A DNA stretch of 35,499 nt from a virus (lineage: Duplodnaviria; Heunggongvirae; Uroviricota; Caudoviricetes), in IMG/VR virus record IMGVR_UViG_2718217860_000003; one strand, given 5' to 3'. The notes under the pieces are model-generated. The model searched no databases and had not been told where the DNA came from. It worked only from the letters and a program-made list of their open reading frames with translations. The position numbers were made by a program, and so were the translations under genes. This document shows, piece by piece, positions 4,149 to 24,116 of the stretch; positions within the stretch are counted from its first letter, which is position 1, and every line of letters begins with the position of its first letter.

Positions 4149-4204
4149 ATCCCTGCCATTGCTGGCATATAAGAATGAAACCGGATATTTATTACGGAAC
4201 TGTT

Positions 4205-5148: not shown

Positions 5149-5367
5149 CTAACGCGGGTATGTAATCATTCTGGCAATGCTTAATGCCGCTGCTTTTTCC
5201 AGATTGGTGATATCCTGCTCCAGAGCGGACAGATTTTCAGCCTGCTTAGCCCTGGCTTCATTAGCCCATTTCAGATCCTGCGCTGCATTAATTTTCTGGC
5301 GCATCCACTCATAAAGTTCATCATCGGTATAGTCTGGCGCGATGATGACGGGTTCTCGTTTCTGCAT
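5149..5367 (-). CDS. ydfC: YdfC-like prophage protein
   Basis: 72-aa ORF in the conserved position between ydfB and dicF. Confidence 0.7.
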   Translation of the reverse strand: MQKREPVIIAPDYTDDELYEWMRQKINAAQDLKWANEARAKQAENLSALEQDITNLEKAAALSIARMITYPR

Positions 5368-6282: not shown

Positions 6283-6332
6283 ATTTAGATATCTTAATAA
6301 TCCTTGACTTGAGATTCCTTGAGTGATTAGCA

Positions 6333-6346
6333 TTGAGAAAACTCAA
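6333..6346. promoter_or_regulatory. Operator-like palindrome TTGAGAAAACTCAA in the dicA/dicC divergent promoter region
   Basis: Perfect inverted repeat 14 nt upstream of the dicC RBS (GGAGG); same core as the site at 5798-5809. Confidence 0.55.
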
Positions 6347-6359
6347 TATTGGAGGTGCG

Positions 6360-6587
6360 ATGTTTAAATCAGACGTAATTAATTTTTACGGTACGAAAGC
6401 CAAAGTAGCGAAAGCTGCTGGCGTTGACCCATCTGCTGTTTCTCAATGGCAAGAGCTAGTTCCTGAAGGTCGCGCGATGCGTCTACAGGAGGCATCTGGC
6501 GGCGAGCTTCTGTATGATCCCAAGGTTTATGACGAATATCGTAAGACGAAGCGGGCGGGGCGGTTGAACAATGAAAATCACTCCTGA
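6360..6587 (+). CDS. dicC: DicC-like Cro-type regulator
   Basis: 75-aa product from the internal ATG (MFKSDVINFYGTKAKVAKAAGV...GRAMRLQEASGGELLYDPKVYDEYRKTKRAGRLNNENHS) with GGAGG upstream; divergent from dicA. Confidence 0.8.
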   Translation: MFKSDVINFYGTKAKVAKAAGVDPSAVSQWQELVPEGRAMRLQEASGGELLYDPKVYDEYRKTKRAGRLNNENHS

Positions 6588-7092
6588 ACAGGCTCGTGAG
6601 GCTCTGGATGCCTGGATATGTCGACCAGGAATGACACAGGAGCAGGCGACGATATTAATCACTGAAGCATTCTGGGCTTTGAAAGAGCGCCCGAACATCG
6701 ATGTTCAGCGTGTCACAGATGAAGGTGGCGCGGTTGATCAGCGAGCGCTTGGCGTTAATCGAGTGAAGATATTCGAACGCTGGAAGGCTATCGACACCAG
6801 GGATAAGCGTGAAAAGTTCACGGCGCTAGTGCCTGCAATTATGGAGGCTATCCGGATTAATGATTTCAGGTTGTATCGTGAAATTAGTGACGGAAAAAGC
6901 ATCACGTACATGATCGCCGGGTTAAACAAAGAATATGGCGATGTGGTGGAGTCCGGACTGCTTTTTGCTGATCCTGCCGTAGTGGATCGTGAAACTGACG
7001 AACTTATAGAAAAAGCAATTGCTTTCAAACTTGCGTATCGACAGCAATACCAACAAAAAGCTGGATGGAATTATGAGCCTTCTTTTTGCTGA
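6571..7092 (+). CDS. Hypothetical early protein in the CII position (possibly a YdaT-family regulatory/toxin-like protein)
   Basis: 173-aa ORF overlapping the dicC stop and the start of the O-like gene. The family assignment is from memory only. Confidence 0.6.
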   Translation: MKITPEQAREALDAWICRPGMTQEQATILITEAFWALKERPNIDVQRVTDEGGAVDQRALGVNRVKIFERWKAIDTRDKREKFTALVPAIMEAIRINDFRLYREISDGKSITYMIAGLNKEYGDVVESGLLFADPAVVDRETDELIEKAIAFKLAYRQQYQQKAGWNYEPSFC

Positions 7093-8038
7093 ACGCCCAC
7101 TGGTTATAAACACACAGCTTGCGATGAAGATTGGCTTAAATGAAGCCATTGTGTTGCAGCAGTTGCATTACTGGTTGAGAGATACCAATTCCGGCATGGA
7201 ATGTGATGGTGTTCGCTGGATTTACAACACAACGGAACAATGGCTGGAACAGTTCCCATTCTGGTCAGAGTCAACGTTAAAGCGCGCGTTTGCAAGTCTG
7301 AAAACGCTGGGGCTCTTGCGTTGTGAAAAGCTCAATAAATCAAAGCGCGATATGACCAATTTCTACACGATTAACTATGGGAGCGAGCTTTTAGATGATG
7401 GCAAATTGAGCGAATCCATCGGTTCAAAATGCGCCGCTCCATCAGGTCAAAATGACACGATGGAAGAGGTCAAAATGAAACGCTCCATTGGTTCAAAACG
7501 ACCCAATGTCATCGGGTCAAAATGGCCCGATGATCCTACAGAGAATACAACAGAGATTACTACAGAGAATAAAAACACTTTTCGTCCGGAAGCTTCGCAA
7601 CCGGACCCGCAGACGGCTGAACAGGATTTTTTAATCTGGCACCCTGGCGCAGTTGTGTTTAGTGCGAAAAAACGCCAGTGGGGTAGCCAGGAGGATCTGG
7701 CGTGTGCGCAGTGGATATGGGGGCGGATCGTGGGTCTCTACGAACAGGCCGCCAGTGATGATGGCGAGATCATGCGACCAAAAGAGCCTAACTGGACTGT
7801 CTGGGCCAATGATGTGCGCACAATGCGGATGCTGGATGGCAGAAGCCACAGACAAATTTGTGAAATGTTTGGTCGGGTACAGCGGGATCCGTTCTGGGTA
7901 AAAAACATCATGAGCCCGTCAAAGCTCCGCGAAAAATGGGACGAACTGGTCATCCGCCTGGGGCGTTCACCTGTACAGCGTTGTGTTAATCATATTTCTG
8001 AACCGGATACAGAAATTCCGCCTGGTTTCAGAGGATAA
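7073..8038 (+). CDS. Replication initiation protein (lambda O-like replisome organiser) with internal iterons
   Basis: N-terminal region resembles phage replication organiser N-domains; the gene contains five approximately 23-bp-spaced direct repeats (iterons). Start placed at ATG 7073 (MSLLFAERP...); the track ORF begins at an upstream TTG. Confidence 0.75.
   Translation: MSLLFAERPLVINTQLAMKIGLNEAIVLQQLHYWLRDTNSGMECDGVRWIYNTTEQWLEQFPFWSESTLKRAFASLKTLGLLRCEKLNKSKRDMTNFYTINYGSELLDDGKLSESIGSKCAAPSGQNDTMEEVKMKRSIGSKRPNVIGSKWPDDPTENTTEITTENKNTFRPEASQPDPQTAEQDFLIWHPGAVVFSAKKRQWGSQEDLACAQWIWGRIVGLYEQAASDDGEIMRPKEPNWTVWANDVRTMRMLDGRSHRQICEMFGRVQRDPFWVKNIMSPSKLREKWDELVIRLGRSPVQRCVNHISEPDTEIPPGFRG
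7415..7525. repeat. Iteron array (putative phage replication origin) inside the O-like gene
   Basis: Direct repeats tccatcGGTTCAAAATG / tccatcaGGTCAAAATG / GAGGTCAAAATG / tccattGGTTCAAAACG / tcatcgGGTCAAAATG starting near 7415, 7438, 7461, 7484 and 7509 (spacing about 23 bp). Confidence 0.7.
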
Positions 8039-8753: not shown

Positions 8754-9653
8754 ATGATTGATCCACTTATTAGAAACTTACAGAGTGATATTGCACTACT
8801 CCAGCTTTATATCGCGCAACGCAAACAGGCAGGCTTTCATGACATGGAAAGAATAATTGAGTCATTGACCATCTTTATGTTTCGCGCGCTGAAAATGGGT
8901 GAACTGGTAAACATGAATCAGATTAAAGTTAATTTTCCCGCCATTGATTTAGCTGATAATAAAAACATGATAGCAGTTCAAGTTACTACGAATGCAAGTC
9001 CAGCAAAAATTAAAAAAACTATCGAATCTTTTGAGGAAGCAAATGAAATAGGAGAGAGTCTGAAAGATAAATACTCTACTTTATATATTTTTGGTTTTTG
9101 TAAAGCCTCAAGATACCTAACTCCAAGTTATTGTAAAATAATCGACCCCAGCTATTTCGTGAATGAACTTTGCGATAAAGCAGATGAAGATATGGTCCAG
9201 GATATGATTGACGCCATTCGACGCCATCATGATTATACATCATTACATCCATGGAGTGATAAAGATTCACTCGAAATTATACTCAATATTATTAATCGCA
9301 ATGCAATAAAACATCGGATGAGTTGCGAAGGCAGTCTGTCTGATATGCTCACTGGTTTAAAAGAAATTAATGAAGTAATTACAAAAGGAACAATTCAACG
9401 TAAGCAACGTTCAAAATCGATATCTGACTTCAAAGATCAAAGCATGGTGAAATTTATGAGAGGTGTAATGGATGATTTGTCTGTTATTCAAGCCATAGTG
9501 AACAAATCTAAAGTTAACCAAGGTGATATGGTTTATATAAGCCATGAAGATATGATTAATATTGATAAATTAAAAGCTAAAATAGCAAGTGATTCATCAG
9601 AGATTGCAAGGCTAAATAATATTGATATAACACTAAATGTTGTTGATTTATAA
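8754..9653 (+). CDS. Hypothetical protein encoded in an AT-rich accessory island (candidate defence/abortive-infection-type protein)
   Basis: 299-aa ORF in a visibly AT-rich block; no confident family match. Convergent with the membrane protein/methyltransferase operon. Confidence 0.7.
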   Translation: MIDPLIRNLQSDIALLQLYIAQRKQAGFHDMERIIESLTIFMFRALKMGELVNMNQIKVNFPAIDLADNKNMIAVQVTTNASPAKIKKTIESFEEANEIGESLKDKYSTLYIFGFCKASRYLTPSYCKIIDPSYFVNELCDKADEDMVQDMIDAIRRHHDYTSLHPWSDKDSLEIILNIINRNAIKHRMSCEGSLSDMLTGLKEINEVITKGTIQRKQRSKSISDFKDQSMVKFMRGVMDDLSVIQAIVNKSKVNQGDMVYISHEDMINIDKLKAKIASDSSEIARLNNIDITLNVVDL

Positions 9654-9967
9654 TTGTCGATTTAGCAAAACAGAGAATGCTTTGAAAGTTTCACCGAGAA
9701 ATATTTATTGTGAACCTCCTTATTGTTTATCGACTTTTACTCTCCGCTCATTGCAGTACTGTCGGAGAAGGCTACTATGTACAAGAAGCAGCTAACATAA
9801 GCGAGCATCACTATTGATATTAGGAAGAGTATATAAAAACTTCATGCTGAACCTTACAAAAGTAGGTAAACCGGCAATGGCCTAAGTGGCAGGGTCATGT
9901 TGATCCGGCACTGCCGAGCTAATAATTAACAAGCAAATCACTCTTTCTAATAATTTGTTGAAATAAA

Positions 9968-10627
9968 CTAAATATGTATATGTTTACCAACAACCACATA
10001 TGAACTACCTGCTTTGCTCCATGATTTTATTATTTCTAAATTATTATCTGAGCATATTTTACTTACAGTATCCACATCTAATAAACCATAGTAGAAAGCA
10101 TTACGAGAGTTTTGGTATATATACCCATGCAAATGTTTAATACCGCTCTCGTACCTCTTGAAATAAGAACTTTTGTATTGATTGACAATCAGTGCTTCAC
10201 CATCACTCTTTAATAATTCTCTAATCGCACTGAGGACTTTGTGAATTGTGGATTCACATGGAATTGCGGAAAGCACGTTTGCGCAAAGTATGAAATCATA
10301 ATGATTTGTTATTTTATCTATATTTTCATAAGAAACAATATTAGCATTCTTATAGTTATTTATCACGTAATCTGGAATCGTGGTTTGTACACCTCTGATA
10401 ATTTGCACTCTTTCTAGTTGTCTTCTGGAATCTAAAAATGTCACAGTTTCAAATTTATTTACTAATTGTTCTGAATATCTAAGTTTTCCACATCCAAAAT
10501 CAAGGGCATTGCCATTTTTATTAGTGCTTTCAATCTGTTTACAGAGATAGTTAGATGGCATAGTGTGCGGTTTCGCTGCATTTTCTGAACGTATGTTTAT
10601 TCCATTTATTTTGTAATTCAAAATCAA
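9968..10627 (-). CDS. Class I SAM-dependent methyltransferase (not a recognisable DNA methyltransferase)
   Basis: 219-aa ORF with SAM-binding motif I (ALDFGCGKLRYSEQL), an acidic post-I residue (VTFLDSRRQ) and a motif II-like segment (DFILCANVLSAIP). No DPPY/NPPY or PCQ motifs. Confidence 0.75.
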   Translation of the reverse strand: MILNYKINGINIRSENAAKPHTMPSNYLCKQIESTNKNGNALDFGCGKLRYSEQLVNKFETVTFLDSRRQLERVQIIRGVQTTIPDYVINNYKNANIVSYENIDKITNHYDFILCANVLSAIPCESTIHKVLSAIRELLKSDGEALIVNQYKSSYFKRYESGIKHLHGYIYQNSRNAFYYGLLDVDTVSKICSDNNLEIIKSWSKAGSSYVVVGKHIHI

Positions 10628-10633
10628 CCTCGT

Positions 10634-11341
10634 TTAAAAAATATTGTTATTGTTAAAGAATTCTTTTATTTTGCTATCAGGTATTTGTCTTACTTGGCTT
10701 TCTGTTCTTGGTTTAACTGATGCTATGAAAATAAGGAAGTCAAATGCGACAAGAGAAATAATCCACAACCAAAGATTAATTAAAGAGCCAGTAACAGAGA
10801 ATATATTTGTTAATTTGGCGATACTTATTATTAAAATAGTAACAAATGCGATTACTGTATGTTCAAAGAAAACCCAAAAGTAATAAACTTTGTTCCAGAA
10901 AAGTTCAACGTAATGTTTGTCTTTTAACTCTTTAACTTCTGGGTAATACAGTTTACTCATTACCTTGTGAGATTCATCAGTAGTTAATTTTCTCGTAACG
11001 CCTGCAATTTTTGCTAATGGTTTAATAATTAAATGACTATCCCACATCTTCCTTATTCCAATAATTTTTGCTACATTATTATGTAGATCTAAAGCTCCAC
11101 TAATTACTGACCAAAAAACTGAAGATGCAATTGGTAATATGCCAAAGGTTAATATCCATTTAATAAATTCCTCGTAGTCTTTAACGGGGGGGATATACTT
11201 GGCATTAATGCCAACCAATGGCATGTAGCCATAAATGACTAATGATAGGTAAAATATAAATGTAGTAATAAAAGTCGCCTTATGGAGCATAGGCAACATT
11301 TCATTATAACTCTTTGGTGGTTCTAACATTTTACTCTCCAA
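10634..11341 (-). CDS. Integral membrane protein (about 4 predicted TM helices), function unknown; forms an operon with the downstream methyltransferase
   Basis: 235-aa ORF with several long hydrophobic stretches; its stop lies 6 bp from the methyltransferase start on the same strand. Confidence 0.7.
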   Translation of the reverse strand: MESKMLEPPKSYNEMLPMLHKATFITTFIFYLSLVIYGYMPLVGINAKYIPPVKDYEEFIKWILTFGILPIASSVFWSVISGALDLHNNVAKIIGIRKMWDSHLIIKPLAKIAGVTRKLTTDESHKVMSKLYYPEVKELKDKHYVELFWNKVYYFWVFFEHTVIAFVTILIISIAKLTNIFSVTGSLINLWLWIISLVAFDFLIFIASVKPRTESQVRQIPDSKIKEFFNNNNIF

Positions 11342-12014
11342 ACATTCAAAAAAAAGCTAATCTTCTATAATAACGAAATTCAGCTGGCACAATTAAAGAT
11401 TAATTGCCACCAATTTCTTGATTTTATAATTTTATCTAAATGTTTTTGATTAATCTAGTCCTAAAAGAAACCTACTGCATAAATATTTATGCTGATGACC
11501 CACTCCCTGTTCGTTAACACATAGCAACGTTAGTAATGCATCCTAAGTGATCAATATTTTTGCTAGCTTCATCTGCTCGCTCAAAGGGAACTATAATGTT
11601 GGCTTGCGTGTGACTTGGCATGTTTAAAGAAGTGCTGGTGGTGACTGGTTGCTGTTTTCCATTTCCACAGAACAAAATCATAGAAACTATACCCAGTAGT
11701 TGTATTGAATCACTGACGAGACAGCCTCATATTTATCAGGACTGGTGTACGTCCAATACAGGAGGTTGTGGTGCTGGTTCTCAAATGTGCGCTGGCTATT
11801 GCTGCTGTAATGGCAATTTATTGTCTTGCTGTTGTTCTTATGGATCACCTTTCTGATTGATTTCATATTGGCGAGGTAACGGTAGTTAAGTAGAATTGCT
11901 GCGGGTGCTTGAGGCTATCTGCCTCGGGCATCAACACCAAAGGCAGATAGAGAAAAGCCCCAGTTAACATTACGCGTCCGGCAAGACGCTTAACATTAAT
12001 CTGAGGCCATATCT

Positions 12015-12227
12015 ATGCTCTACACACGTAGGTTAGCCTCTTACGTGCCGAAAGGCAAGGAGAAGCAGGCTATGAAGCAGCAAAAGGCGATGCTAATCGC
12101 CCTGATCGTCATCTGTTTAACCGTCATAGTGACGGCACTGGTAACGAGGAAAGACCTCTGCGAGGTACGAATCCGAACCGGTCAGACGGAGGTCGCTGTC
12201 TTCACAGCTTACGAACCTGAGGAGTAA
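12015..12227 (+). CDS. Mok-like leader ORF in frame with hokD (N-terminally extended reading frame)
   Basis: The track ORF starts 19 codons upstream of the Hok Met in the same frame. Confidence 0.35.
   Translation: MLYTRRLASYVPKGKEKQAMKQQKAMLIALIVICLTVIVTALVTRKDLCEVRIRTGQTEVAVFTAYEPEE
12072..12227 (+). CDS. hokD: Hok/Gef-family type I toxin (HokD/RelF-like)
   Basis: 51-aa product MKQQKAMLIALIVICLTVIVTALVTRKDLCEVRIRTGQTEVAVFTAYEPEE with AAGGAG RBS; single TM helix and conserved Hok C-terminus. Confidence 0.9.
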   Translation: MKQQKAMLIALIVICLTVIVTALVTRKDLCEVRIRTGQTEVAVFTAYEPEE

Positions 12228-14103: not shown

Positions 14104-14478
14104 ATGCTCATAGATTTGGTTTTACCTTACCCGCCGACGGTGAACACTTACTGGCGACGCCGTGGCAGCACATATTTTATCTCGGAGGAGGGAAAGCGTT
14201 ATCGCCGGGCTGTGGCGCTTATTGTTCGCCAGCAGCGGCTGAAATTAAGCCTGTCCGGAAGGCTAGCGATAAAGGTGATTGCAGAGCCACCGGATAAGCG
14301 TCGTCGCGACCTGGACAATATCCTGAAAGCACCGCTGGATGCGCTGACGCATGCGGGAGTGTTAATGGACGATGAGCAGTTTGATGAAATCAATATCGTT
14401 CGTGGTCAGCCAGTATCTGGTGGACGTATGGGGGTGAAGATTTACCCCATAATGCATGAAGAGCAGGTCAAAAAATGA
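14104..14478 (+). CDS. rusA: RusA-family Holliday-junction resolvase
   Basis: 124-aa ORF with conserved acidic residues (PDKRRRDLDNILKAPLDAL...VLMDDEQ) matching the RusA fold; overlaps the Q start by 4 nt. Confidence 0.8.
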   Translation: MLIDLVLPYPPTVNTYWRRRGSTYFISEEGKRYRRAVALIVRQQRLKLSLSGRLAIKVIAEPPDKRRRDLDNILKAPLDALTHAGVLMDDEQFDEINIVRGQPVSGGRMGVKIYPIMHEEQVKK

Positions 14479-15296
14479 AACTGGAAGATTTACCGAAATA
14501 CTACTCCCCAAAATCCCCTTGCCTGACCGATGCATCGGCCTCAACGTCAAAAGATGCGCTGAGTATCACTGATGTGATGGCCGCGCAGGGCATGACACAG
14601 AATCGGGCTGAGATGGGGTTTTCTGCGTTCCTGGGGAAAATGGGCATCAGTATGAATGACAGGGCGCGGGCAACAGAATTACTGGCAGATTATGCACTCA
14701 GTCGGTGCGATCGTGTGGCGGCGTTGAGAAAACTTCCGGCAGAAATAAAACCGTTAGTGATGCGCATTATGGCTTCGTACGCTTTTGAGGATTATGCCCG
14801 CAGCGCAGCGAGTAAAAAGCAGTGCCCTTGTTGCTATGGGGAAAAATTTATTGAAAGCGTAGTTTTTACAAACAAGGTCCAGTATCCGGATGGTAAGCCG
14901 CCGGTATGGGCAAAGTGTACGAAAGGTGTGTATCCGTCTTACTGGGAAGAATGGAAAAAAGTCAGGGAGGTGGTAAAAGTTGCCTGTCCGGAGTGTGGCG
15001 GAAAGGGTGAGGTTTCCACCGTCTGTAAGGATTGCCGTGGGCGTGGTGTCGCCATTCACCGTGAAGAGTCGGTAAAACGTGGTATGCCTGTTATCAGAGA
15101 CTGCCAGCGTTGTGGTGGTCGTGGCTATGAAAGACTACCATCAACGGAGGCATTTAATGCTATATGCGAGGTGACAAACCAGATAACACGCGCGTCATGG
15201 GAAAAAACAGTTAAGAAATTCTATGATGCGCTGGTGACCCGGTTTGATATTGAAGAAGCATGGGCTGAGCGGCAGTTAAAAAAGGTAACTAGGTAA
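14475..15296 (+). CDS. quuQ: Late-gene antiterminator Q (Q21/Q82-type, zinc-finger containing)
   Basis: 273-aa ORF with Cys clusters (CPCCYG, CPECGGKGE, CKDCRGRG, CQRCGGRG), immediately upstream of a promoter/terminator pair and the lysis genes. Confidence 0.8.
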   Translation: MKLEDLPKYYSPKSPCLTDASASTSKDALSITDVMAAQGMTQNRAEMGFSAFLGKMGISMNDRARATELLADYALSRCDRVAALRKLPAEIKPLVMRIMASYAFEDYARSAASKKQCPCCYGEKFIESVVFTNKVQYPDGKPPVWAKCTKGVYPSYWEEWKKVREVVKVACPECGGKGEVSTVCKDCRGRGVAIHREESVKRGMPVIRDCQRCGGRGYERLPSTEAFNAICEVTNQITRASWEKTVKKFYDALVTRFDIEEAWAERQLKKVTR

Positions 15297-15329: not shown

Positions 15330-15378
15330 CGTCATAACGATGGGCTTTTTATACCTGACGTTAGAAGAGTTTCTACAA

Positions 15379-15402
15379 CCCGCCACCGAGCGGGTTTTTT
15401 AT
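15379..15402 (+). terminator. Intrinsic terminator (tR'-like) downstream of PR'
   Basis: Hairpin CCCGC-CACCGA-GCGGG followed by TTTTTTATT. Confidence 0.6.
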
Positions 15403-15439: not shown

Positions 15440-15515
15440 GGTCCTTTAGCTCAGTGGTGAGAGCGAGCGACTCATAATCGCCAGGTCGCTGGTTCAAATC
15501 CAGCAAGGGCCACCA
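15440..15515 (+). tRNA. tRNA with CAU anticodon (ileX/ileZ-type tRNA-Ile2 if lysidine-modified; reads as Met by anticodon alone)
   Basis: Cloverleaf: acceptor GGTCCTT/AAGGGCC, D-arm GCTCAGTGGTGAGAGC, anticodon loop CTCATAA, T-arm GGTTCAAATCC, 3' ACCA. One A-C mismatch at the base of the anticodon stem. Confidence 0.8.
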
Positions 15516-15621
15516 TCACAAACCGCCATGAGCTTATCAGGAAGAGCAGACGACACGATAACAGGGTTGTTGGTGCGGGGGGGGGGGCGGGTCCCCGATG
15601 GCGGTCCATTATCGGTATTCA

Positions 15622-15698
15622 GCGTTGTTAGCTCAGCCGGACAGAGCAATTGCCTTCTAAGCAATCGGTCACTGGTTCGAATCCAGTACAGCGCGCCA
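15622..15698 (+). tRNA. tRNA-Arg (UCU anticodon)
   Basis: Acceptor GCGTTGT/ACAGCGC, D-arm AGCTCAGCCGGACAGAGC, anticodon loop CTTCTAA, T-arm GGTTCGAATCC, 3' GCCA. Confidence 0.8.
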
Positions 15699-15808: not shown

Positions 15809-16162
15809 TTGATTGAGTGTTTGTTATACGGTCTAATGGTTTTTTCAGCATTAAATATTTATCATTCATATGGTGTGGGTAGAGTGAATATTGATGAGGC
15901 GTCGGGGTGTTTCATCCTTAGGCAGCGTATTGATATAGTCAATGCAGCACGAGCAAAGGCCTTCAGCCGTTTGACAGTTTTGTTCTGTGCTCCTGATCGT
16001 CTTTCGGGAAGAGACGTTATTATTCTGAATAGTGATGCTATACAGAGGGTTTGCGATGAGTTCATGGTTGCTAATTCAGAATTATTTGCTCTTGTTCAGG
16101 AGTACAACAGAATAGCCAGGACCTGTGGTATGGATGAACTTCGGATTACTCATCTGGGGTAG
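15809..16162 (+). CDS. Hypothetical protein (uncertain ORF)
   Basis: 117-aa ORF between the tRNAs and the lipoprotein genes; no convincing RBS seen. Confidence 0.35.
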   Translation: MIECLLYGLMVFSALNIYHSYGVGRVNIDEASGCFILRQRIDIVNAARAKAFSRLTVLFCAPDRLSGRDVIILNSDAIQRVCDEFMVANSELFALVQEYNRIARTCGMDELRITHLG

Positions 16163-16695
16163 ATACATATCTGGATTATCACCTGTTACGGTAAAAAGTG
16201 ATTGCTTACTGTTTTTGTGAATGGCATTGCAGCAGCCGGATAATGTCAGTGCTGGCTGACGGTGTGCTGGTGGCGGGTGTGGTGGTTGTTGCTTTCCCGT
16301 TGCTGAAAAAGAAAACGCCAGACTGTTAGCCGGGTATCAGTTAGCGGGAGAAATTTTTAAATACTTCACAATTCAGGCGGTTGACTGTTCTCTGGTTTGC
16401 GGGGAGTTTGTTAAAAGAAACTGGCATGGTGAATCCCCCTGTGCGGAGGGGCAATCAGCGAGTAGGCATATGGGATAATCGCGGATTCAGGTGCTGGTAC
16501 TGAATTCACCGGGAGGCACCCGGCACCATGCACTTCAATAGATTCTCTCCACATTATGGATATTCTTTCAGAATATCCCACGCAGACTTTGTGTAAATGT
16601 TAACAAATGTGCGTTTTATTTGATCTGATTCGCTGTTTGAGCGTCCAAAACAACGGTATATATAATCCTTTACTATATGACATATGTGAGGAAAA

Positions 16696-17124
16696 ATGGG
16701 TTTTCGTAGCGCATCAATTCTTACGTTGATTATTAGTGGGATTATTATCGGGTGCACTGATGCTGTATCGACAAATTATCATGACCGTACATCATATTAC
16801 TCCGATAAAGCAATAGAGACACAGTATGTGAGTTCATCTGAACGTACTTCTGATGTTAGTGAGGATATCCGTCTGTATGCCCATCAAATCAAGAGCGCCA
16901 TCGAAAAACAGTTCGGGGATGCGAGTAAGTATTCAGGAAAAGAGTGTACACTGAGAATGCATATGGCCCCGAATGGCCTTCTACTGGAGGTTAAAAGAGA
17001 AAGTGGAGACCTCGATTTATGTCGTGAAGCGATGAATGCGATAAAGAATGCTGATATACCTGCCCCCCCTTCGCCGGAAGTATATAAAGTATTTCAAAAT
17101 GGGGTGCTGGATTTTAAACCCTGA
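16696..17124 (+). CDS. Lipoprotein with a TolA C-terminal (domain III)-like domain
   Basis: 142-aa ORF; lipobox LIISGIIIGC; C-terminal segment (YAHQIKSAIEKQFGDASKYSGKECTLRMHMAPNGLLLEVKRESGDLDLCREAMNAIKNADIPAPPSPEVYKVFQNGVLDFKP) closely parallels the E. coli TolA domain III sequence as recalled. Confidence 0.8.
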   Translation: MGFRSASILTLIISGIIIGCTDAVSTNYHDRTSYYSDKAIETQYVSSSERTSDVSEDIRLYAHQIKSAIEKQFGDASKYSGKECTLRMHMAPNGLLLEVKRESGDLDLCREAMNAIKNADIPAPPSPEVYKVFQNGVLDFKP

Positions 17125-17274
17125 TATTTATTGTTTTGTAATAAACGGTTTCGGCTTAGGTTTGTTCTGACACAACTACGGCACTGAGCTAAATTTAGCG
17201 GATAGTCAGCTCTGAGCCAGTGGCGGACGTAACAACTACTATTGCTGAGATTTTAATGGATTGAGGAGCAAGAA

Positions 17275-17670
17275 GTGGGATTAAAGAAAATCGTTATGTT
17301 GACTTTTTGGGTCGGTTTTGTTGCGGGATGCACACCTTTACACCCTTCAGATTGCCACAAAACTACTGCTACAGGTAGTTGCAGTTCAGGACGCTGGGAT
17401 GATCAGGATGAATGGGGGGCGCAAGCGCGGGGAATCAGAGCTGCAATTAATGCCAAACTTGATGAGCCGCATAACTGGAAAGGGAAAATATGCAGGTTGC
17501 ATATGGAATTCTCTCAGGATGGCACGGCGTTAAAAATATCTACCAGTAACGGTGATAAAGCCTATTGCGAAGCGATAAAGTCCGCAGCTCATAAAGCCAA
17601 ATTTCCGGCCTTCAACAATCCGAAAGTCTACAGAGATTTTCAGAAATCTGGCTTTGACATGCGAGGTTAG
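17275..17670 (+). CDS. Second, divergent lipoprotein with a TolA domain III-like C-terminus (paralogue of the upstream gene)
   Basis: 131-aa ORF; lipobox VGFVAGC; shares KxCxLHM...G..L...........C.A...A.......P....VY..FQ spacing with the upstream protein and TolA-III. Confidence 0.7.
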   Translation: MGLKKIVMLTFWVGFVAGCTPLHPSDCHKTTATGSCSSGRWDDQDEWGAQARGIRAAINAKLDEPHNWKGKICRLHMEFSQDGTALKISTSNGDKAYCEAIKSAAHKAKFPAFNNPKVYRDFQKSGFDMRG

Positions 17671-17921
17671 CTCTTCAATTACTATATCTCATTCATAGCA
17701 AACTGACAGATTTGATGATGTTCTATATACGAAACCTGTGATGTCAAGTCTGAGCTAATACAAATAAACATAATATCAGAGAAATACATTTTATTAGCTC
17801 GCTACGGCGAGCTTTTTATATTGCATCGTCTCCAGCATATATATCAATTAAGGCTCTGATTGATGTGTCTGGAAGCCTACACATAATAACTATGCCATCC
17901 GTTCCGTGCGGAGGTGAGGCT

Positions 17922-18137
17922 ATGAAATCCATGGACAAAATTTCAACAGGCATTGCCTACGGCACCTCCGCAGGCAGTGCTGGCTACTGGTTTTTACAGC
18001 TGCTCGATAAAGTCACGCCCTCACAGTGGGCAGCAATAGGTGTGCTGGGTAGCCTGGTATTTGGCCTGCTGACGTACCTGACAAACCTTTATTTCAAGAT
18101 TAAAGAAGACAAGCGTAAGGCTGCACGGGGAGAGTAA
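17922..18137 (+). CDS. Holin (S21/EssD-type pinholin) with dual-start motif
   Basis: Product [71 protein letters not shown], with two Met codons (MKSM) for antiholin/holin; two TM segments. Confidence 0.85.
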
Positions 18138-18141
18138 TTCA

Positions 18142-18486
18142 ATGACTCAAAAATATGAACTGATTGTGAAAGGGATCCGCAATTTTGAGAATAAAGTTAC
18201 GGTAACTTTAGCGTTACGGGACAAAGAACGCTTTGACGGTGAAATTTTTGACCTGGACATCTCGCTGGACCGTGTTGAAGGTGCCGCGCTGGAGTTTTAT
18301 GAGGCAGCAGCCAGAAGGAGCATCAGACAGGTCTTCCTGGATGTTGCTGCCGGGTTATGTGAAGGGGATGAGCTGTCGCCGGAAAAGCGCCCCATAATTT
18401 TAGAGGCGCAGAATGTGTGGATAACCTACAAAGGAAAGCTACCGGGAAGAATTACTGGTTCTCTGAAGACTCCGCCGAAATGGTAA
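18142..18486 (+). CDS. Hypothetical protein inserted between holin and endolysin
   Basis: 114-aa ORF starting 5 bp after the holin stop. Confidence 0.55.
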   Translation: MTQKYELIVKGIRNFENKVTVTLALRDKERFDGEIFDLDISLDRVEGAALEFYEAAARRSIRQVFLDVAAGLCEGDELSPEKRPIILEAQNVWITYKGKLPGRITGSLKTPPKW

Positions 18487-18829: not shown

Positions 18830-19372
18830 ATGAACGTAAAAATCAGATACGGCCTGTCGGCTGCCGTTCTGGCACTGATTGCCGTCCGTGCGCCTGCGCC
18901 TGATATTCTCGACCAGTTTCTGAATGAAAAAGAAGGTAACCACACAACGGCATACCGCGATGGTTCCGGCATCTGGACCATCTGTCGGGGTGCCACGGTG
19001 GTGGATGGAAAACCCGTTTTTCCCGGTATGAAACTGTCGAAGGAAAAATGCGACCAGGTTAACGCCATTGAACGGGATAAGGCGCTGGCATGGGTGGAGC
19101 GCAATATTAAAGTGCCACTGACCGAACCACAGAAAGCGGGTATAGCGTCATTTTGTCCCTATAACATTGGCCCCGGTAAGTGTTTCCCGTCGACGTTTTA
19201 TAAGCGGCTGAATGCCGATGATCGTAAGGGGGCATGCGAGGCGATTCGCTGGTGGATAAAAGATGGTGGGCGTGATTGCCGCCTGACAAAAGGGCAGAAG
19301 AATGGCTGTTATGGGCAGGTCGAGCGGCGCGATCAGGAAAGCGCACTGGCGTGCTGGGGGCTGGAGCAATGA
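18830..19372 (+). CDS. Endolysin (RrrD-like lysozyme with N-terminal hydrophobic signal/SAR-like segment)
   Basis: 180-aa ORF with catalytic E-x8-D-x5-T (EGNHTTAYRDGSGIWT) and hydrophobic N-terminus (YGLSAAVLALIAV). Confidence 0.85.
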   Translation: MNVKIRYGLSAAVLALIAVRAPAPDILDQFLNEKEGNHTTAYRDGSGIWTICRGATVVDGKPVFPGMKLSKEKCDQVNAIERDKALAWVERNIKVPLTEPQKAGIASFCPYNIGPGKCFPSTFYKRLNADDRKGACEAIRWWIKDGGRDCRLTKGQKNGCYGQVERRDQESALACWGLEQ

Positions 19373-19905
19373 AAATTAATCCGGATCTTATAGGCGTTGT
19401 CGTTATTGCTGGCCTTTCGGTCGCTCTCGTCAAGAGTTGCTCTCACGCCAGTAATCTTCAGAGCGATAACGACGTTCTGCGAAGTGACAACTCTATGCTG
19501 GGGCAGGTAATCGCCACCCAGGCATTCAACTTCAATCGATTCAATCAGGTTGCAGAACATGCCAACAGTCTTAACTCCCTGATCGACACCAGCACCGAAA
19601 AAACCGTAATCGAATACCGGGAGATTCTCCGCCGTGAAAAAACCTGTGATCTGCCTGTTCCTGCTGATATCGCTGGTGGGTTGCTCGAATACACGTACCG
19701 TTTACGTGCCAGCGCCATGCACACCGATACCGGCAGACCTAATGAAGCCTATGATCGTACCGCTACCACCAGCTCAATGACCTACTGCCAAGCTGTCTTG
19801 TGGATTAAGCCGCTACTGGCGTTGATAGAAAAAGGAAATAATAATTTTTCGAGTATTCGTGAAATTGATGAGTTGCGTTACAGACCATCTGAGCATGGCC
19901 AGTAA
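19369..19905 (+). CDS. Rz-like inner-membrane spanin subunit (i-spanin)
   Basis: Start ATG overlaps the endolysin stop (ATGA); N-terminal TM helix (LIGVVVIAGLSVALV) followed by a charged periplasmic domain. Confidence 0.75.
   Translation: MKINPDLIGVVVIAGLSVALVKSCSHASNLQSDNDVLRSDNSMLGQVIATQAFNFNRFNQVAEHANSLNSLIDTSTEKTVIEYREILRREKTCDLPVPADIAGGLLEYTYRLRASAMHTDTGRPNEAYDRTATTSSMTYCQAVLWIKPLLALIEKGNNNFSSIREIDELRYRPSEHGQ
19634..19780 (+). CDS. Rz1-like outer-membrane lipoprotein spanin subunit (o-spanin), embedded in the +1 frame of Rz
   Basis: Not in the ORF track. Manual translation from GTG 19634: MKKPVICLFLLISLVGCSNTRTVYVPAPCTPIPADLMKPMIVPLPPAQ*, with a lipobox (LVGC) and proline-rich tail. 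Confidence 0.65.
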   Translation: MKKPVICLFLLISLVGCSNTRTVYVPAPCTPIPADLMKPMIVPLPPAQ

Positions 19906-20073
19906 GGTTGCAGGAAATTTAAAATCTGGCGATGAAATTTAATATTAGAAATTCATTGCCTAGTGAGATTAATAATGGGCATCCCTTTGTGACGATAAGC
20001 TTTAACACATTCACAAAGGGATATTTAATATAGGGTGGTTAATTCCCACTTGCTGTGGTGTTTAGGGGGTAAT

Positions 20074-20766
20074 TCAAATCTTATCTAACTCATTATAGGC
20101 TTCGATAATAAAAATTCTGATTTTAATAAGGCATGATTCAATGAAAGGAATTACTTCATGGTCATTCCCATGGAATCTTATTTTTTTCTCTTCGGTAATG
20201 ACTATGTTTAAAGGTACACCATTACCACTTCTTTGTAATTTCCCATTTTCGAAAGTAAAGTCTTCTAATTTTTTGCCATTGATGTGGTTGTTTTTAAAGA
20301 GAATTTTTGCTGAGCTTCCTGCTGTGATTAAACCAAAACCATCTACGCTCACACTTAGGTCTTTAACAGAACTCTCTTCTCTTAAGGGGATTGGTTGTCT
20401 GTGCTTTACTTCATTAGTGAGATTACACATCATTTCCAACCAAGATTCGCCAGTGTGATAATCCTGTATAGAAGTAAAAATTTTATATAATGGAGAAGAT
20501 GATGGTGGGTTTATTTTTAGCGTCTTTGAGAAAAATTTATCAATAAACTCTTTTTTTCCGTAAGGGAAATATATTTTGGGGCGCTCATCATTACTGCGTG
20601 GAGAAATATATTTATCATAGGTATCATTAGCGAGATACTCTAAGGAACTTCGTAAGTTTTCCAAAATAGCTTTGACTTTTACAGGCTTGATATGCTGTGT
20701 CTGTCTCATTATGCCAAGACTTTCTTCAACTTCTTGCAATAAGTCCAACGAGCCTTCTCTAGACAT
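20074..20766 (-). CDS. Hypothetical protein in an AT-rich moron between the lysis cassette and terminase
   Basis: 230-aa ORF in a visibly AT-rich segment, opposite strand to the flanking late genes; no family recognised. Confidence 0.65.
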   Translation of the reverse strand: MSREGSLDLLQEVEESLGIMRQTQHIKPVKVKAILENLRSSLEYLANDTYDKYISPRSNDERPKIYFPYGKKEFIDKFFSKTLKINPPSSSPLYKIFTSIQDYHTGESWLEMMCNLTNEVKHRQPIPLREESSVKDLSVSVDGFGLITAGSSAKILFKNNHINGKKLEDFTFENGKLQRSGNGVPLNIVITEEKKIRFHGNDHEVIPFIESCLIKIRIFIIEAYNELDKI

Positions 20767-21337
20767 ACAGGTAATTCTCCTTTATGAATTTTCAACATGT
20801 TATAACTAATAATATATTTATCATATAACTGTATGAATAAATTGTGAGATTAGTAATGCAAGTTTCTATCCATAGTGTTCTCTAAGTACCCGCTTCCATC
20901 ATGTTGTTACGGACGGTATGGCTAAAACAAAGCACCTGAAGTTAAACGTTCTGAACTTTATGCTCGTTGAGCATATGAATTATCTGTAACCCGATGCGCT
21001 GGTTGTGGTTCACATTGATGGTCGTAATCAGCAGCGGTGGTGCCTGATGGCATGCAACTTCTTACTTATAAAACTTCGTATGGAATTGTTGCCATAACGA
21101 GCCCAGCTTAGCAGTTTTTAATGGGTCCTCCCGGCAGTGTGTCCTGCCACGGGGCGGGAGCGTCGCGGAAAAAGGCTAGTTTTTGAAATTTCATTCGTCA
21201 TCACCACTACTTTAATATATTGATATTACAGTGGTTTTATTTTTATGGTGTCGATTTTGATTGTTTTTTGTTCATCACTAACACCGTTTGCCTAAAGTTG
21301 TTCGCAAGATGCATGTTTAAAACATTCTGGAGCGGGT

Positions 21338-21638
21338 ATGGATCGAGAGTTGAAAAATCTGACGCTGAATATCAGTCAACTGGCGGCACTGTCAGGTGTA
21401 CATCGCCAGACTGCTGCGGCAAGGCTGCAAAATCTACCCGTTGCAGGGGGGCATGAAAGCAACCTCAAGCTTTATCGGGTGGTTGATATTGTGTCGGCAT
21501 TTCTGGCATTGCCACCGCCGGTTGCAGAAGGCGAAATGGACGCGCATGAGCGCAAAGCCTGGTATCAGTCTGAACGTGAGCGTCTTAAGTTCGAACAGGA
21601 AACGGCACAACTCATTCCGGCCAGTGATGTCAGACGGG
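21338..21638 (+). CDS. Terminase small subunit (Nu1/NohA-like), 3'-truncated by the assembly gap
   Basis: N-terminal HTH-like segment (LNISQLAALSGVHRQTAAARL); the ORF runs into the N-run. Confidence 0.6.
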
Positions 21639-21738
21639 NNNNNNNNNNNNNNNNNNNNNNNNNNNNNNNNNNNNNNNNNNNNNNNNNNNNNNNNNNNNNN
21701 NNNNNNNNNNNNNNNNNNNNNNNNNNNNNNNNNNNNNN
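21639..21738. other. Assembly gap (100 N) between terminase and tail gene M
   Basis: Run of 100 ambiguous bases; terminase-large through tail gene H are absent from the window. Confidence 0.99.
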
Positions 21739-21765
21739 TGGTCGGTTAAGTGGAGCATATCGGTA

Positions 21766-22095
21766 ATGGAGACGTTTCACTGGAAAGTGCGCCCGGATAT
21801 GAATGTGGTATCAGAGCCGAAAGTGGTGACAGTGAAGCTGGGCGATGGTTATGAACAGCGTCGTGTGGCGGGACTGAATAACCAGTTGTCGACTTACAGC
21901 GTGACGATACGTGTTCGTAAATGTGAACACCCATCTTTAAAAGCCTTTCTGGAACGGCACGGTGGCGTCCGCGCATTTCAGTGGACGCCACCTTATGACT
22001 GGAAGCCGATCAGGGTGGTTTGTCGTAAATGGTCGGCGAGCGTAGGGGCGCTGTGGGTAACCATAACGGCAGATTTTGAACAGGTCGTGGCATAG
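21766..22095 (+). CDS. M: Tail tip assembly protein M (lambda M-like)
   Basis: 109-aa ORF METFHWKVRPDMNVVSEPKVVTVKLGDGYEQR..., same length and pattern as lambda gpM. Confidence 0.9.
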   Translation: METFHWKVRPDMNVVSEPKVVTVKLGDGYEQRRVAGLNNQLSTYSVTIRVRKCEHPSLKAFLERHGGVRAFQWTPPYDWKPIRVVCRKWSASVGALWVTITADFEQVVA

Positions 22096-22104
22096 GAGGC
22101 TCTG

Positions 22105-22803
22105 ATGCAGGATATTCCACAGGAAACACATCATGAGACGACACGCCTCACTCAGTCAGCCCTGGTGGTGCTCTGGGAAATCGATCTGACAGAGGTCGGT
22201 GGAGAACGTTATTTTTTCTGTAATGAGCAGAACGAAAAAGGTGAGCCGGTTACCTGGCAGGGGCGGCAGTATCAGGCATACCCCATTCAGGGGACGGGAT
22301 TTGAACTGAACGGCAAGGGCAGTGCTGCCCGTCCGACACTGACGGTTTCTAACCTGCACGGCATGGTCACCGGGATGGCGGAAGACCTGCAGAGTCTGGT
22401 CGGCGGAACGGTGGTCAGGCGTAAGGTTTACGCCCGTTTTCTGGATGCGGTGAACTTCGTCAACGGAAACAGCGACGCCGATCCGGAGCAGGAGGTGATC
22501 AGCCGCTGGCGCATCGAGCAGTGCAGCGAACTGAGTGCGGTCAGTGCCTCCTTTGTGTTGTCCACACCGACGGAAACGGATGGTGCCGTTTTTCCGGGGC
22601 GCATCATGCTGGCTAATACCTGCACCTGGACCTATCGCGGTGATGAGTGCGGTTATCACGGTCCGGCGGTCGCGGATGAATATGATCAGCCGACGTCCGA
22701 TATCACGAAGGATAAATGCAGCAAATGCCTGAGCGGTTGTAAGTTCCGCAATAACGTCGGCAACTTTGGCGGCTTCCTTTCCATTAACAAACTTTCGCAG
22801 TAA
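22105..22803 (+). CDS. L: Tail tip assembly protein L (lambda L-like)
   Basis: 232-aa ORF with the conserved C-terminal Cys cluster (CTWTYRGDECGYHG...CSKCLSGC). Confidence 0.9.
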   Translation: MQDIPQETHHETTRLTQSALVVLWEIDLTEVGGERYFFCNEQNEKGEPVTWQGRQYQAYPIQGTGFELNGKGSAARPTLTVSNLHGMVTGMAEDLQSLVGGTVVRRKVYARFLDAVNFVNGNSDADPEQEVISRWRIEQCSELSAVSASFVLSTPTETDGAVFPGRIMLANTCTWTYRGDECGYHGPAVADEYDQPTSDITKDKCSKCLSGCKFRNNVGNFGGFLSINKLSQ

Positions 22804-22808
22804 ATACC

Positions 22809-23552
22809 ATGACACAGACAGAATCAGCGATTCTGGCGCACGCCCGGCGATGTGCGCCAGCGGAGTCGTGCGGCTTCGTGGTGAGAACACCGGAGGGGGA
22901 AAGATATTTTCCCTGCGTGAATATCTCTGGTGAGCCGGAGGCGTATTTCCGGATGTCGCCGGAGGACTGGCTGAGTGCAGAAATGCAGGGAGAGATTGTG
23001 GCGCTGGTCCACAGCCACCCCGGTGGTCTGCCCTGGCTGAGTGAGGCCGACCGGCGGCTGCAGGTGCAGAGTGATTTGCCGTGGTGGCTGGTCTGCCGGG
23101 GGGCGATTCATAAATTCCGCTGTGTGCCGCATCTCACCGGGCGGCGCTTTGAGCACGGGGTGACGGACTGTTACACGCTGTTCCGGGACGCTTACCATCT
23201 GGCGGGAATTGAGATGCCGGATTTTCATCGCGGGGATGACTGGTGGCGTCACGGCCAGAATCTCTATCTTGACAATATGGAGGCAACGGGTTTTTACCGT
23301 GTCCCACTGACAGAGGCGCAGCCTGGCGACGTGCTGCTGTGCTGTTTTGGTTCATCGGTGCCGAATCATGCCGCCATTTACTGTGGCGACGGCGAGCTGC
23401 TGCACCATATTCCTGAACAACTGAGTAAACGAGAGAGGTACACCGACAAATGGCAGCGACGCACACACTCCCTCTGGCGTCACCGGGCATGGCACGCATC
23501 TGCCTTTACGGGGATTTGCAACGATTTGGTCGCCGTATCGACCTTCGTGTGA
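22809..23552 (+). CDS. K: Tail assembly protein K (lambda K-like, MPN/JAB + NlpC/P60 domains)
   Basis: 247-aa ORF; HSHPGG (JAB-type) motif and a Cys/His peptidase-like region. The conventional lambda K start corresponds to Met49 at 22953 (199 aa). The 3' end overlaps gene I by 103 nt, as in lambda. Confidence 0.85.
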   Translation: MTQTESAILAHARRCAPAESCGFVVRTPEGERYFPCVNISGEPEAYFRMSPEDWLSAEMQGEIVALVHSHPGGLPWLSEADRRLQVQSDLPWWLVCRGAIHKFRCVPHLTGRRFEHGVTDCYTLFRDAYHLAGIEMPDFHRGDDWWRHGQNLYLDNMEATGFYRVPLTEAQPGDVLLCCFGSSVPNHAAIYCGDGELLHHIPEQLSKRERYTDKWQRRTHSLWRHRAWHASAFTGICNDLVAVSTFV

Positions 23553-24097
23553 AAACGGGGGCTGAAGCCATCCGGGCACTGGCCACACAGCTCCCGGTGT
23601 TTCGTCAGAAACTGAATGAGGGCTGGTATCAGGTGCGCATTGCCGGGCGTGATGCAGGCGAAAATGAATTATCTGCCCGTCTTAATGAGCCGCTGGCAAA
23701 TGGTGCCGTGATCCACATCGTGCCGCGTCTGGCGGGAGCTAAAAGTGGCGGTGTGTTTCAGGTGGTGCTTGGGGCGGCGCTGATTGCGGTGGCATGGTGG
23801 AACCCTGTGGGCTGGCTGGGGGCCGCGGCTGTATCGGGCATGTATGCGGCAGGGGCCAGTATGATCCTGGGCGGAGTGGCGCAGATGCTGGCACCGAAAG
23901 CCAGGACGCCCACGGCAGCCAGTACAGATAACGGCAAACAGAACACCTATTTCTCCTCACTGGATAACATGGTTGCCCAGGGCAATGTTCTGCCGGTTCT
24001 GTACGGTGAAATGCGCGTGGGGTCACGCGTGGTTTCTCAGGAGATCAGCACGGCAGACGAAGGGGACGGTGGTCAGGTTGTGGTGATTGGTCGCTGA
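23450..24097 (+). CDS. I: Tail assembly protein I (lambda I-like)
   Basis: 215-aa ORF MAATHTLPLASPGMARICLYGDLQRFGRRIDLRVKTGAEAIRALATQLP..., matching lambda gpI ends as recalled. Confidence 0.9.
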   Translation: MAATHTLPLASPGMARICLYGDLQRFGRRIDLRVKTGAEAIRALATQLPVFRQKLNEGWYQVRIAGRDAGENELSARLNEPLANGAVIHIVPRLAGAKSGGVFQVVLGAALIAVAWWNPVGWLGAAAVSGMYAAGASMILGGVAQMLAPKARTPTAASTDNGKQNTYFSSLDNMVAQGNVLPVLYGEMRVGSRVVSQEISTADEGDGGQVVVIGR

Positions 24098-24116
24098 TGC
24101 AAAATGTTTTATGTGA

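Follow-up and report, generated by a model that had tools for sequence, protein, structure and literature searches.

The DNA analysed here is a stretch of 35,499 nucleotides (the window), deposited as the IMG/VR virus record IMGVR_UViG_2718217860_000003, and it represents a Qin-like lambdoid prophage. It carries on the plus strand two neighbouring open reading frames (ORFs), each coding for a small predicted lipoprotein that ends in a copy of domain III, TolA's C-terminal domain. ORF1 (16696..17124) encodes 142 amino acids, which comprise a signal peptide (residues 1-20, lipobox IIGC), a disordered tether rich in Ser, Thr and Tyr (21-54) and the TolA domain III (55-142). ORF2 (17275..17670) starts with GTG and encodes 131 amino acids, made up of a signal peptide (1-19, lipobox VAGC), a conserved Cys-loop tether (20-43, CTPLHPSDCHKTTATGSCSSGRWDDQDEWG) and the TolA domain III (44-131). 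The ATG of ORF1 is preceded, at a distance of 5 nt, by the Shine-Dalgarno (SD) sequence GAGGA. RefSeq places the start of ORF2 at an ATG further downstream (17296); the longer form starting at 17275 was preferred because the SD sequence GAGG and a GTG or ATG start codon are kept across ~20 loci.

Lipoprotein signal peptides with these two lipoboxes had been noticed in a first-pass annotation of the window, and this reading was borne out. The N-termini of ORF1 (MGFRSASILTLIISGIIIGC, followed by TD) and ORF2 (MGLKKIVMLTFWVGFVAGC, followed by TP) both consist of a short charged n-region, a hydrophobic h-region and the lipobox, with Thr at position +2, and both satisfy the lipoprotein pattern of a positive n-region, an h-region, the lipobox [LVI][ASTVI][GAS]C and a residue other than Asp at +2. 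The lipobox was retained in essentially all full-length homologues recovered. The two proteins are therefore read as lipoprotein precursors, and since the +2 residue is not Asp, the sorting rule established for Escherichia coli predicts that the Lol pathway passes them on to the outer membrane, into its inner leaflet.

TolA domain III outside TolA

Both proteins scored above the gathering cut-off (25) of the Pfam family PF06519 (TolA C-terminal), ORF1 with 82.6 bits (E = 2.4e-23) and ORF2 with 52.9 bits (E = 4.4e-14). In a phmmer search against PDB sequences, residues 55-142 of ORF1 were aligned without gaps to residues 334-421 of E. coli TolA, through the common C-terminal LDFKP (E = 5e-28), and residues 50-129 of ORF2 matched TolA with E = 5e-9. 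Over the 88 positions of the domain 52 residues of ORF1 (59%) and 27 of ORF2 (31%) are identical to E. coli TolA. The first-pass annotation had described the C-terminal part of ORF1 as parallel to TolA domain III almost residue for residue; this stands for the gapless colinearity but not for the degree of identity. The Cys pair equivalent to C363/C388 of TolA, with its spacing of 25 residues, is present as Cys84/Cys109 in the ORF1 domain (16858..17121, plus strand) and as Cys73/Cys98 in the ORF2 domain (17404..17667, plus strand).

In the AlphaFold2 models the predicted local distance difference test score (pLDDT) was ~90 for the domains, whereas the initial 41-53 residues stayed under 50. The ORF1 model superposed on 2x9a_B, the TolA domain III in complex with the gene 3 protein (g3p) of phage IF1, at 0.6 Å, and the ORF2 model on free TolA domain III (3qdp) at 1.0 Å, with a template modelling (TM) score of 0.93. 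TolA domain III was also the top Foldseek match of both models (0.6-1.0 Å). Thus, the resemblance held in both of the checks suggested along with the first-pass annotation, alignment to TolA residues ~325-421 and structural modelling. According to the models, each protein carries the complete TolA domain III fold with its disulfide and the C-terminal beta3 edge strand.

Neither ORF1 nor ORF2 is TolA, because the inner-membrane helix and domain II are missing and the NCBIfam models of TolA are matched only over their last ~95 positions. The N-terminal helix (domain I), which couples TolA to TolQ-TolR, is replaced by a lipoprotein signal peptide with predicted cleavage at the lipobox Cys, and in place of the long helical domain II, rich in Ala, Lys and Glu, there are only the short tethers (21-54 and 20-43) with pLDDT values below 50. 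The genes also lie outside the ybgC-tolQRA-tolB-pal-cpoB cluster. With the NCBIfam model NF007065 (TolA) ORF1 and ORF2 scored 107.8 and 52.3 bits, both under the cut-off of 213, and the matches were restricted to positions 293-386 of the 387 in the model. The score of ORF1 with TIGR02794 (75.6) exceeded the cut-off of 59.45 through the domain III match alone; ORF2 remained below it with 45.5. It was probably from this TIGR02794 match that ORF1 was named 'tolA' in RefSeq by the Prokaryotic Genome Annotation Pipeline. The label is wrong, and its pipeline version, 'cell envelope integrity protein TolA', hides the family. RefSeq also uses 'TolA C-terminal domain-containing protein', the names found for the family being all automated, and PHROGs assigns both proteins to phrog_5772, described as 'unknown function'. 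In the literature 'tolA' or 'TolA protein' is mentioned in passing in gene lists of prophages or plasmids (PMC6854850, PMC6807383, PMC10269471, PMC2833190).

The edges of TolA domain III used by its ligands are known. The N-terminus of TolB, colicin N (ColN) and g3p bind by beta-strand addition to beta3 (A415-K420); the substitutions D418P or K420P abolish binding of all three, while other beta-forming residues at beta3 are tolerated, and the affinity of TolA is weak for TolB (~40 µM) and higher for ColN (~1 µM) (PMC4339652). Colicin A (ColA) uses the opposite edge, namely beta2 (L375-P380) together with K368, K379 and K396 (PMC3365938). In ORF1 the LDFKP of beta3 is unchanged (VLDFKP for PLDFKP at TolA 416-421), the ColA-binding beta2 strand is kept (LLEVKR for LLDIKP at 375-380), and so are two of the three cation-pi lysines (H, K and K at positions 368, 379 and 396). 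In ORF2 beta3 (GFDMRG, with FDMRG in place of LDFKP) is still beta-forming; beta2 reads ALKIST, and the three lysine positions are occupied by E, S and H.

Spread, selection and plasmid relatives

ORF2 had been taken in the first-pass annotation for a divergent paralogous copy of ORF1. The Cys spacing is indeed the same, but the two are not recent paralogues, as their domains are only 27% identical and each gene also occurs alone. For the same reasons, low identity and independent distribution, a recent tandem duplication was rejected. With 59% identity to TolA and 27% to ORF2, ORF1 is nearer to the host TolA than to its neighbour. Proteins of the ORF1 type were recovered only from E. coli and Shigella, among them a few variants of 65-74% identity. 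One ORF1 variant, in a prophage of strain STEC1589, has no ORF2 beside it and immediately follows tRNA-Ile and tRNA-Arg. The ORF2 type is represented in Citrobacter, Enterobacter, Klebsiella, Raoultella, Serratia, Pluralibacter, Buttiauxella and Rouxiella, and the 19 species found by scanning genome contigs with narrow patterns understate the spread.

At an identity of at least 99%, ORF1 was present in 888 of 5426 complete E. coli genomes, almost always on the chromosome, and ORF2 in 1263, where 825 of its places were chromosomal and 517 on plasmids. In 772 of these genomes the 1.5-kb pair was complete, which indicates that the alleles at this level of identity travel as a unit and the diverged alleles singly. 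Matches in IMG/VR were all near-identical E. coli prophage fragments. The description 'common phage gene' was rejected, as the pair turned up in just a single genome (mEp460_ev081) among the 50,697 deposited for phages, and among the viral structures of BFVD there was no match to the fold at E <= 0.001. When 1.8 billion representatives were searched exhaustively with a profile, 584 matches were obtained. Among the best 148 of these, 97 are not longer than 200 amino acids, and 61 of the 97 have a lipobox; none of these 61 distant lipoproteins has Asp at +2, and many end in ...NAPLDFKP like TolA. Short exported proteins with TolA domain III therefore constitute a large family.

ORF2 behaves as a single-gene cassette of ~0.45 kb. 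The DNA common to the loci of ~20 species consists of the gene and ~50-90 nt upstream of it, the flanks are unrelated, and no synteny of ORF2 was found when it was looked for across genera. In the chromosomes of Enterobacter, Citrobacter, Klebsiella and Serratia the sites occupied by the cassette are unrelated; ORF2 stands alone among ordinary metabolic and regulatory genes in the chromosomes of Enterobacter kobei/cloacae and Citrobacter amalonaticus. The chromosomal cassettes have the sequence TTGAAA upstream, a -10-like element ~18 nt downstream of it and an SD sequence. The prophage copy is without this -35 TTGAAA, which fits co-transcription with ORF1.

The ratio of nonsynonymous to synonymous substitution rates (dN/dS) was 0.04-0.19 for ORF2, at dS values of 0.5-2, and the mature protein is exactly 113 amino acids long in 19 of 20 loci. 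For ORF1, compared with the STEC1589 variant, dN/dS was 0.33. Judged by these values, ORF2 is under strongly purifying selection and both ORFs are functional genes. The tether of ORF2 (17332-17403, residues 20-43, CHKTTATGSC...GRWDDQDEWG) is modelled as disordered and yet conserved across genera as much as the domain. It contains two extra Cys residues nine residues apart, which recur in distant short TolA domain III lipoproteins. This conservation suggests that the tether may have an additional function.

Relatives of the pair are frequent on plasmids. A gene 87% identical to ORF2 lies directly downstream of the NikB relaxase gene on ~600 E. coli/Shigella plasmids, including the IncI1 plasmid pHUSEC41-1 and pO157 (6965-7396 in locus L089 and 5964-6395 in locus L093); on pO157 it is found beside a truncated nikB, upstream of toxB. 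On ~380 Klebsiella ColRNAI plasmids of 10-12 kb there is a 123-residue lipoprotein with TolA domain III, lipobox LTAC and the C-terminus NAPLDFRP, whose gene overlaps that of a 121-residue TonB_C protein (PF03544, E = 9e-11) with a Sec signal. In the 10-kb form, which occurs in hundreds of Klebsiella isolates and is represented by the Klebsiella pneumoniae plasmid NZ_CP023944 (5165-5898 in locus L090, minus strand), this gene pair is located between a CopG/ParE module and a bacteriocin operon, and is divergent from the latter, which encodes a cloacin-like bacteriocin, E3 immunity and lysis. Another relative of TolA domain III is encoded by ~300 large Klebsiella plasmids. On the one of these looked at, the IncFII plasmid pRYC11 of K. 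pneumoniae (4187-5216 in locus L113, plus strand), a 144-residue TolA domain III lipoprotein is directly preceded by a thioredoxin-fold protein with a signal peptide and a CVYC motif, which may be a dedicated disulfide-forming partner. A version with a Sec signal is located next to psiA on a MOBH plasmid. Both pRYC11 and the MOBH plasmid come from Klebsiella and were typed as mating pair formation class F (MPF_F).

Setting in the prophage

The prophage of the window contains integrase, DicF, dicB-side genes, hokD/sok, rem, DUF968, RusA and Q. On the 3' side of Q there follow a tR'-like terminator, two tRNA genes, a 117-amino-acid ORF, DUF3927, a match to the small RNA family STnc100, the TolA domain III pair, holin, DUF1327/YdfR, lysozyme and spanins. 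The location of the pair between Q and the lysis genes, stated in the first-pass annotation, is thus correct. For the gene of the late antiterminator Q (14475..15296, plus strand) the annotation in strain CFSAN064035, whose prophage is near-identical, reads antitermination protein. The terminator-like hairpin lies at 15377-15396, and the tRNA genes, with the anticodons CAU (tRNA-Ile in RefSeq) and UCU (Arg), at 15440..15698 on the plus strand. Directly 3' of them are the 117-amino-acid ORF, for which no Pfam match was found, and the 43-amino-acid DUF3927 gene (15809-16329, plus strand). The STnc100 match (16395..16585, plus strand; 113.7 bits in Rfam, gathering score 47) ends 110 nt upstream of ORF1; on the opposite strand RefSeq annotates a pseudo-ORF.

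Adjoining the STnc100 match and 30 nt upstream of ORF1 there is a candidate sigma-70-like promoter (16637..16666, plus strand), composed of TTGAGC, an 18-nt spacer and TATAAT. With 10 of 12 consensus matches it was the top site in the segment 15200-18200. The 150-nt spacer that separates ORF1 from ORF2 showed no terminator-like site. An intrinsic terminator with a GC-rich stem of 7 bp followed by TTTTTAT (17796..17821, plus strand; folding energy -13 kcal/mol, z = -3.4 relative to shuffled sequences) separates ORF2 from the essD-like holin gene (17922..18137, plus strand), the first gene of the lysis cassette. The cassette continues with DUF1327/YdfR (18142-18486), lysozyme (18830-19372) and spanin genes (19276-19905 and 19634-19780). 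The GC content of the pair is 40-43%, compared with ~50% in the flanks. A promoter-like site, two genes, a strong terminator and an atypical GC content together suggest the anatomy of a moron, and a terminator ahead of the holin gene would be expected if the pair were transcribed in the lysogen while the lysis genes stay silent. Transcription of ORF1 and ORF2 as a two-gene moron is probable, from their own promoter in the lysogen and as part of the Q-antiterminated late transcript during lytic growth.

The first-pass annotation had placed the pair at the position of the Shiga toxin genes (stx) of Stx phages. This was not confirmed for the window. The segment 16424-16532, within the STnc100 match, is common to Stx phages, and in the Stx1 phage 75/02, which carries stx and a nanS-p-type esterase in the corresponding interval, it lies just downstream of stxB. 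Consequently, the pair stands in place of the esterase and not of stx. In Stx2 phages we take stx2 to be located directly after the tRNAs, the place held by the ORF1 variant in STEC1589 and by the 117-amino-acid ORF and DUF3927 in the present prophage; in the Qin prophage of K-12 the same interval as that of the pair is presumably occupied by cspB/cspF.

The prophage is defective. The DUF1441 gene (in the region 21338-24100) is directly followed by the tail genes L, K, I, J, Lom, Stf and Tfa, and the genes for the large terminase, portal, capsid and tail shaft (tail tube, tape measure) are missing; the near-identical prophage of CFSAN064035 is complete and has them. The DUF1441 protein is 142 amino acids long here and 164 in the intact relative. 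Some further features were noted in the window. Between the spanin genes and DUF1441 there is an island of 34% GC (19800-21000) with a minus-strand ORF of 230 amino acids (20074-20766, 'hypothetical' in RefSeq), which looks like a second moron. Rfam matches were obtained for DicF (4756-4807, minus strand) and for sok with hokD (11903-12077, plus strand), both of them typical elements of cryptic prophages of the Qin kind, and also for IS009 (32243-32441, plus strand), which falls within the gene for tail fibre assembly. The interval 8754-11341, flanked by the replication region and a ninR-like one, holds genes for an SMEK-domain protein, a class I SAM-dependent methyltransferase and a hypothetical protein, as named by RefSeq in the identical prophage, which may form a defence or modification module.

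Possible functions and known systems

The interpretation that we tentatively prefer, at somewhat less than an even chance, is that ORF1 and ORF2 are decoys tethered to the outer membrane, which intercept Tol-dependent colicins and the g3p of filamentous phages. On disordered tethers of 25-35 residues the TolA domains would hang just below the outer membrane, at the periplasmic entry point of group A colicins, of cloacin/klebicin-type translocation domains and of g3p. There they would present the same surfaces for beta-strand augmentation as TolA but without a link to the TolQR motor, so that an invader would be captured unproductively and the cell would be tolerant. ORF1 would closely mimic E. 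coli TolA; ORF2, having a different surface, would probably have another range of ligands, perhaps including the N-terminus of TolB. Because TolA binds TolB with ~40 µM and ColN with ~1 µM affinity, a moderate amount of decoy could intercept the parasites with little disturbance of Tol-Pal.

The decoy interpretation is supported by the nature of the elements on which the family rides (IncI1, IncFII, MPF_F and a bacteriocin plasmid), which would gain from blocking Tol-dependent entry. Conjugative pili of the IncI1, IncFII and MPF_F kinds are used as receptors by filamentous phages that depend on TolA. Further support comes from the combination with an exported TonB domain, since TolA and TonB share the property of being parasitised by bacteriocins and phages. 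The retained fold, disulfide and beta3 strand, the ColA edge of ORF1, the conserved signals for export and anchoring, the moron-like anatomy and the low dN/dS values speak for it as well. Interference at this node from the periplasm has a precedent: the N1 domain of g3p, when present in the periplasm, sequesters TolA and causes tolerance to colicin A and a 4-log drop in the uptake of phage fd (PMC10424213).

Several points weigh against the decoy interpretation. The residues contacted by ColA are lost in ORF2 (K368E, K379S, K396H, D377K), that is, all three lysines and most of beta2; since ORF2 is without them, a colicin-A-type decoy role is plausible for ORF1 only. E-type colicins bind TolB rather than TolA, and a decoy would stop these only if it also competed for TolB with TolA, at an expected price in envelope integrity. 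The strong purifying selection on ORF2 and its near-invariance from one genus to another are more easily reconciled with a conserved ligand of the host, TolB for instance, than with an arms race against diverse colicins. The promoter of ORF1 is a consensus match only, and the site is absent upstream of the STEC1589 variant. The association with a bacteriocin plasmid rests on a single plasmid backbone lineage. Literature searches revealed no functional study of genes of the ORF1/ORF2 type, only passing annotations, and PADLOC gave no match to either protein at E <= 1.

The main alternative, which we regard as unlikely though worth serious attention, is that the two lipoproteins modulate the Tol-Pal system. 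A tethered TolA domain III would compete with TolA for the N-terminal strand of TolB, or for another native partner at the outer membrane; Pal would be mobilised less and the outer membrane loosened, with more vesicles, which could aid phage release, bacteriocin release or adaptation of the envelope. The position of the genes in the late operon, directly ahead of holin, endolysin and spanins, agrees with this, but the lysis cassette is already complete, spanins included, and the promoter-like site together with the terminator shielding the holin gene points to expression in the lysogen. In the same way, the homologue on the ColRNAI plasmid adjoins a bacteriocin operon with a lysis gene, but loosening of the envelope would leave the exported TonB C-terminal partner on that plasmid unexplained. 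The beta3 strand that binds TolB is kept, and a block of the TolA-TolB interaction gives a full tol phenotype with leakage (PMC4339652). The near-invariance of ORF2 is again consistent with a conserved host partner. Against this, Enterobacter and Citrobacter have ORF2 homologues as stable chromosomal genes in non-phage contexts, and there it would be costly to show a tol phenotype constitutively. Interception of invaders and modulation of Tol-Pal are not mutually exclusive, because any competitor containing TolA domain III may do both in part. Either function is compatible with all findings and is strengthened by the plasmid context; the mechanism itself we infer.

Rather less probable still is that the fold of TolA domain III and TonB has been reused, above all in ORF2, to bind some other ligand, such as a periplasmic or outer-membrane protein, peptidoglycan or a partner of the Cys-loop tether. 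The effect on fitness would then be unrelated to Tol-dependent import and could be, for example, resistance to serum, bile or stress, as with lipoproteins of the Bor/TraT type. That ORF2 is only 31% identical to TolA domain III, with changed contacts to the known ligands, and that the motif in its N-terminal tether is conserved to the same degree as the domain, argues for such a role, as does the maintenance of the cassette at many places in chromosomes where neither phages nor bacteriocins are involved. The pairing of one plasmid version with a thioredoxin-fold protein points in the same direction. However, ORF1 is a close mimic of the E. coli domain, including the beta3 and beta2 edges, and the import hubs are indicated by the recurrence on plasmids of the conjugative and bacteriocin kinds and by the combination with a TonB C-terminal domain.

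The last explanation, that the genes are non-functional relics, i.e. tolA fragments produced by illegitimate recombination, carried along and mis-annotated, could appeal to the RefSeq name of ORF1, the defective state of the prophage and the truncated and insertion sequence-fused variants in the databases, but it is very improbable and was rejected in view of the dN/dS values (0.04-0.33) and the conserved export signals: the ORFs are intact with conserved SD sequences, signal peptides and lipoboxes, which TolA itself lacks, their models are confident, and the genes recur at high identity in 888 to 1263 complete genomes.

If the decoy interpretation is correct, the pair would provide tolerance at low cost, over a broad range and in a horizontally transferable form, with a bearing on colicin and phage therapeutics, on M13-type phage tools and on models of gut competition. 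Group A colicins and filamentous phages enter through TolA domain III, and natural resistance to them is usually ascribed to costly receptor or tol mutations or to specific immunity proteins. Carriage amounts to 16-23% of complete E. coli genomes, and includes pO157 and the IncI1 plasmids that spread extended-spectrum beta-lactamases. It is conceivable, although we hold this with more doubt than the decoy role of the pair, that there is a wider and so far unrecognised class of 'hub decoys': mobile elements of Enterobacterales (temperate phages, conjugative plasmids of the IncI1, IncFII and MOBH types, ColE-type bacteriocin plasmids) and some chromosomes would carry exported TolA domain III proteins, mostly outer-membrane lipoproteins, and TonB C-terminal domains. 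By mimicry of the hub, and not by masking of receptors or neutralisation of toxins, these would protect broadly against bacteriocins that depend on Tol or Ton and against filamentous or TonB-dependent phages. If true, hub decoys would be a new principle of defence at the envelope, present in about a fifth of E. coli genomes. Should the proteins tune Tol-Pal instead, their natural role would be to regulate the stability of the outer membrane and its vesiculation.

The closest known counterpart of the two proteins is domain III of E. coli TolA (~325-421; PDB 1S62, 3QDP, 1TOL, 2X9A, 3QDR), which has the same fold, disulfide and beta3 strand, and with which ORF1 is colinear to the last residue. 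Unlike TolA, ORF1 and ORF2 have a lipid anchor, predicted to be in the outer membrane, lack domains I and II and the link to TolQR, and are borne by a prophage. Periplasmic g3p-N1, colicin translocation domains and TolA domain III fragments likewise interfere at this node from the periplasm; such fragments were reportedly found by Levengood-Freyermuth et al. in 1993 to give colicin tolerance. Those competitors are laboratory constructs or the invader's own protein, whereas ORF1 and ORF2 are natural, conserved genes of mobile elements, whose products have a predicted lipid anchor. Protection of the carrier at the envelope by small accessory lipoproteins or outer-membrane proteins of phages and plasmids is familiar from Llp of T5, Cor of phi80/N15, TraT of F and Bor of lambda. 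No sequence relationship of these to ORF1 or ORF2 was detected with Pfam, PHROGs or PADLOC. Llp and Cor block a surface receptor (FhuA), while the mechanism proposed for ORF1 and ORF2 is mimicry of an energy-transducing hub in the periplasm. The TonB_C protein of the K. pneumoniae ColRNAI plasmids, which is not encoded in the window, is likewise a stand-alone exported hub docking domain, with a Sec signal instead of a lipobox, and laboratory constructs of the TonB C-terminal domain in the periplasm inhibit TonB-dependent uptake. The domain itself is already recognised by the databases; protection of the envelope by a hub mimic encoded on mobile elements would, if the mechanism holds, be a previously undescribed one.

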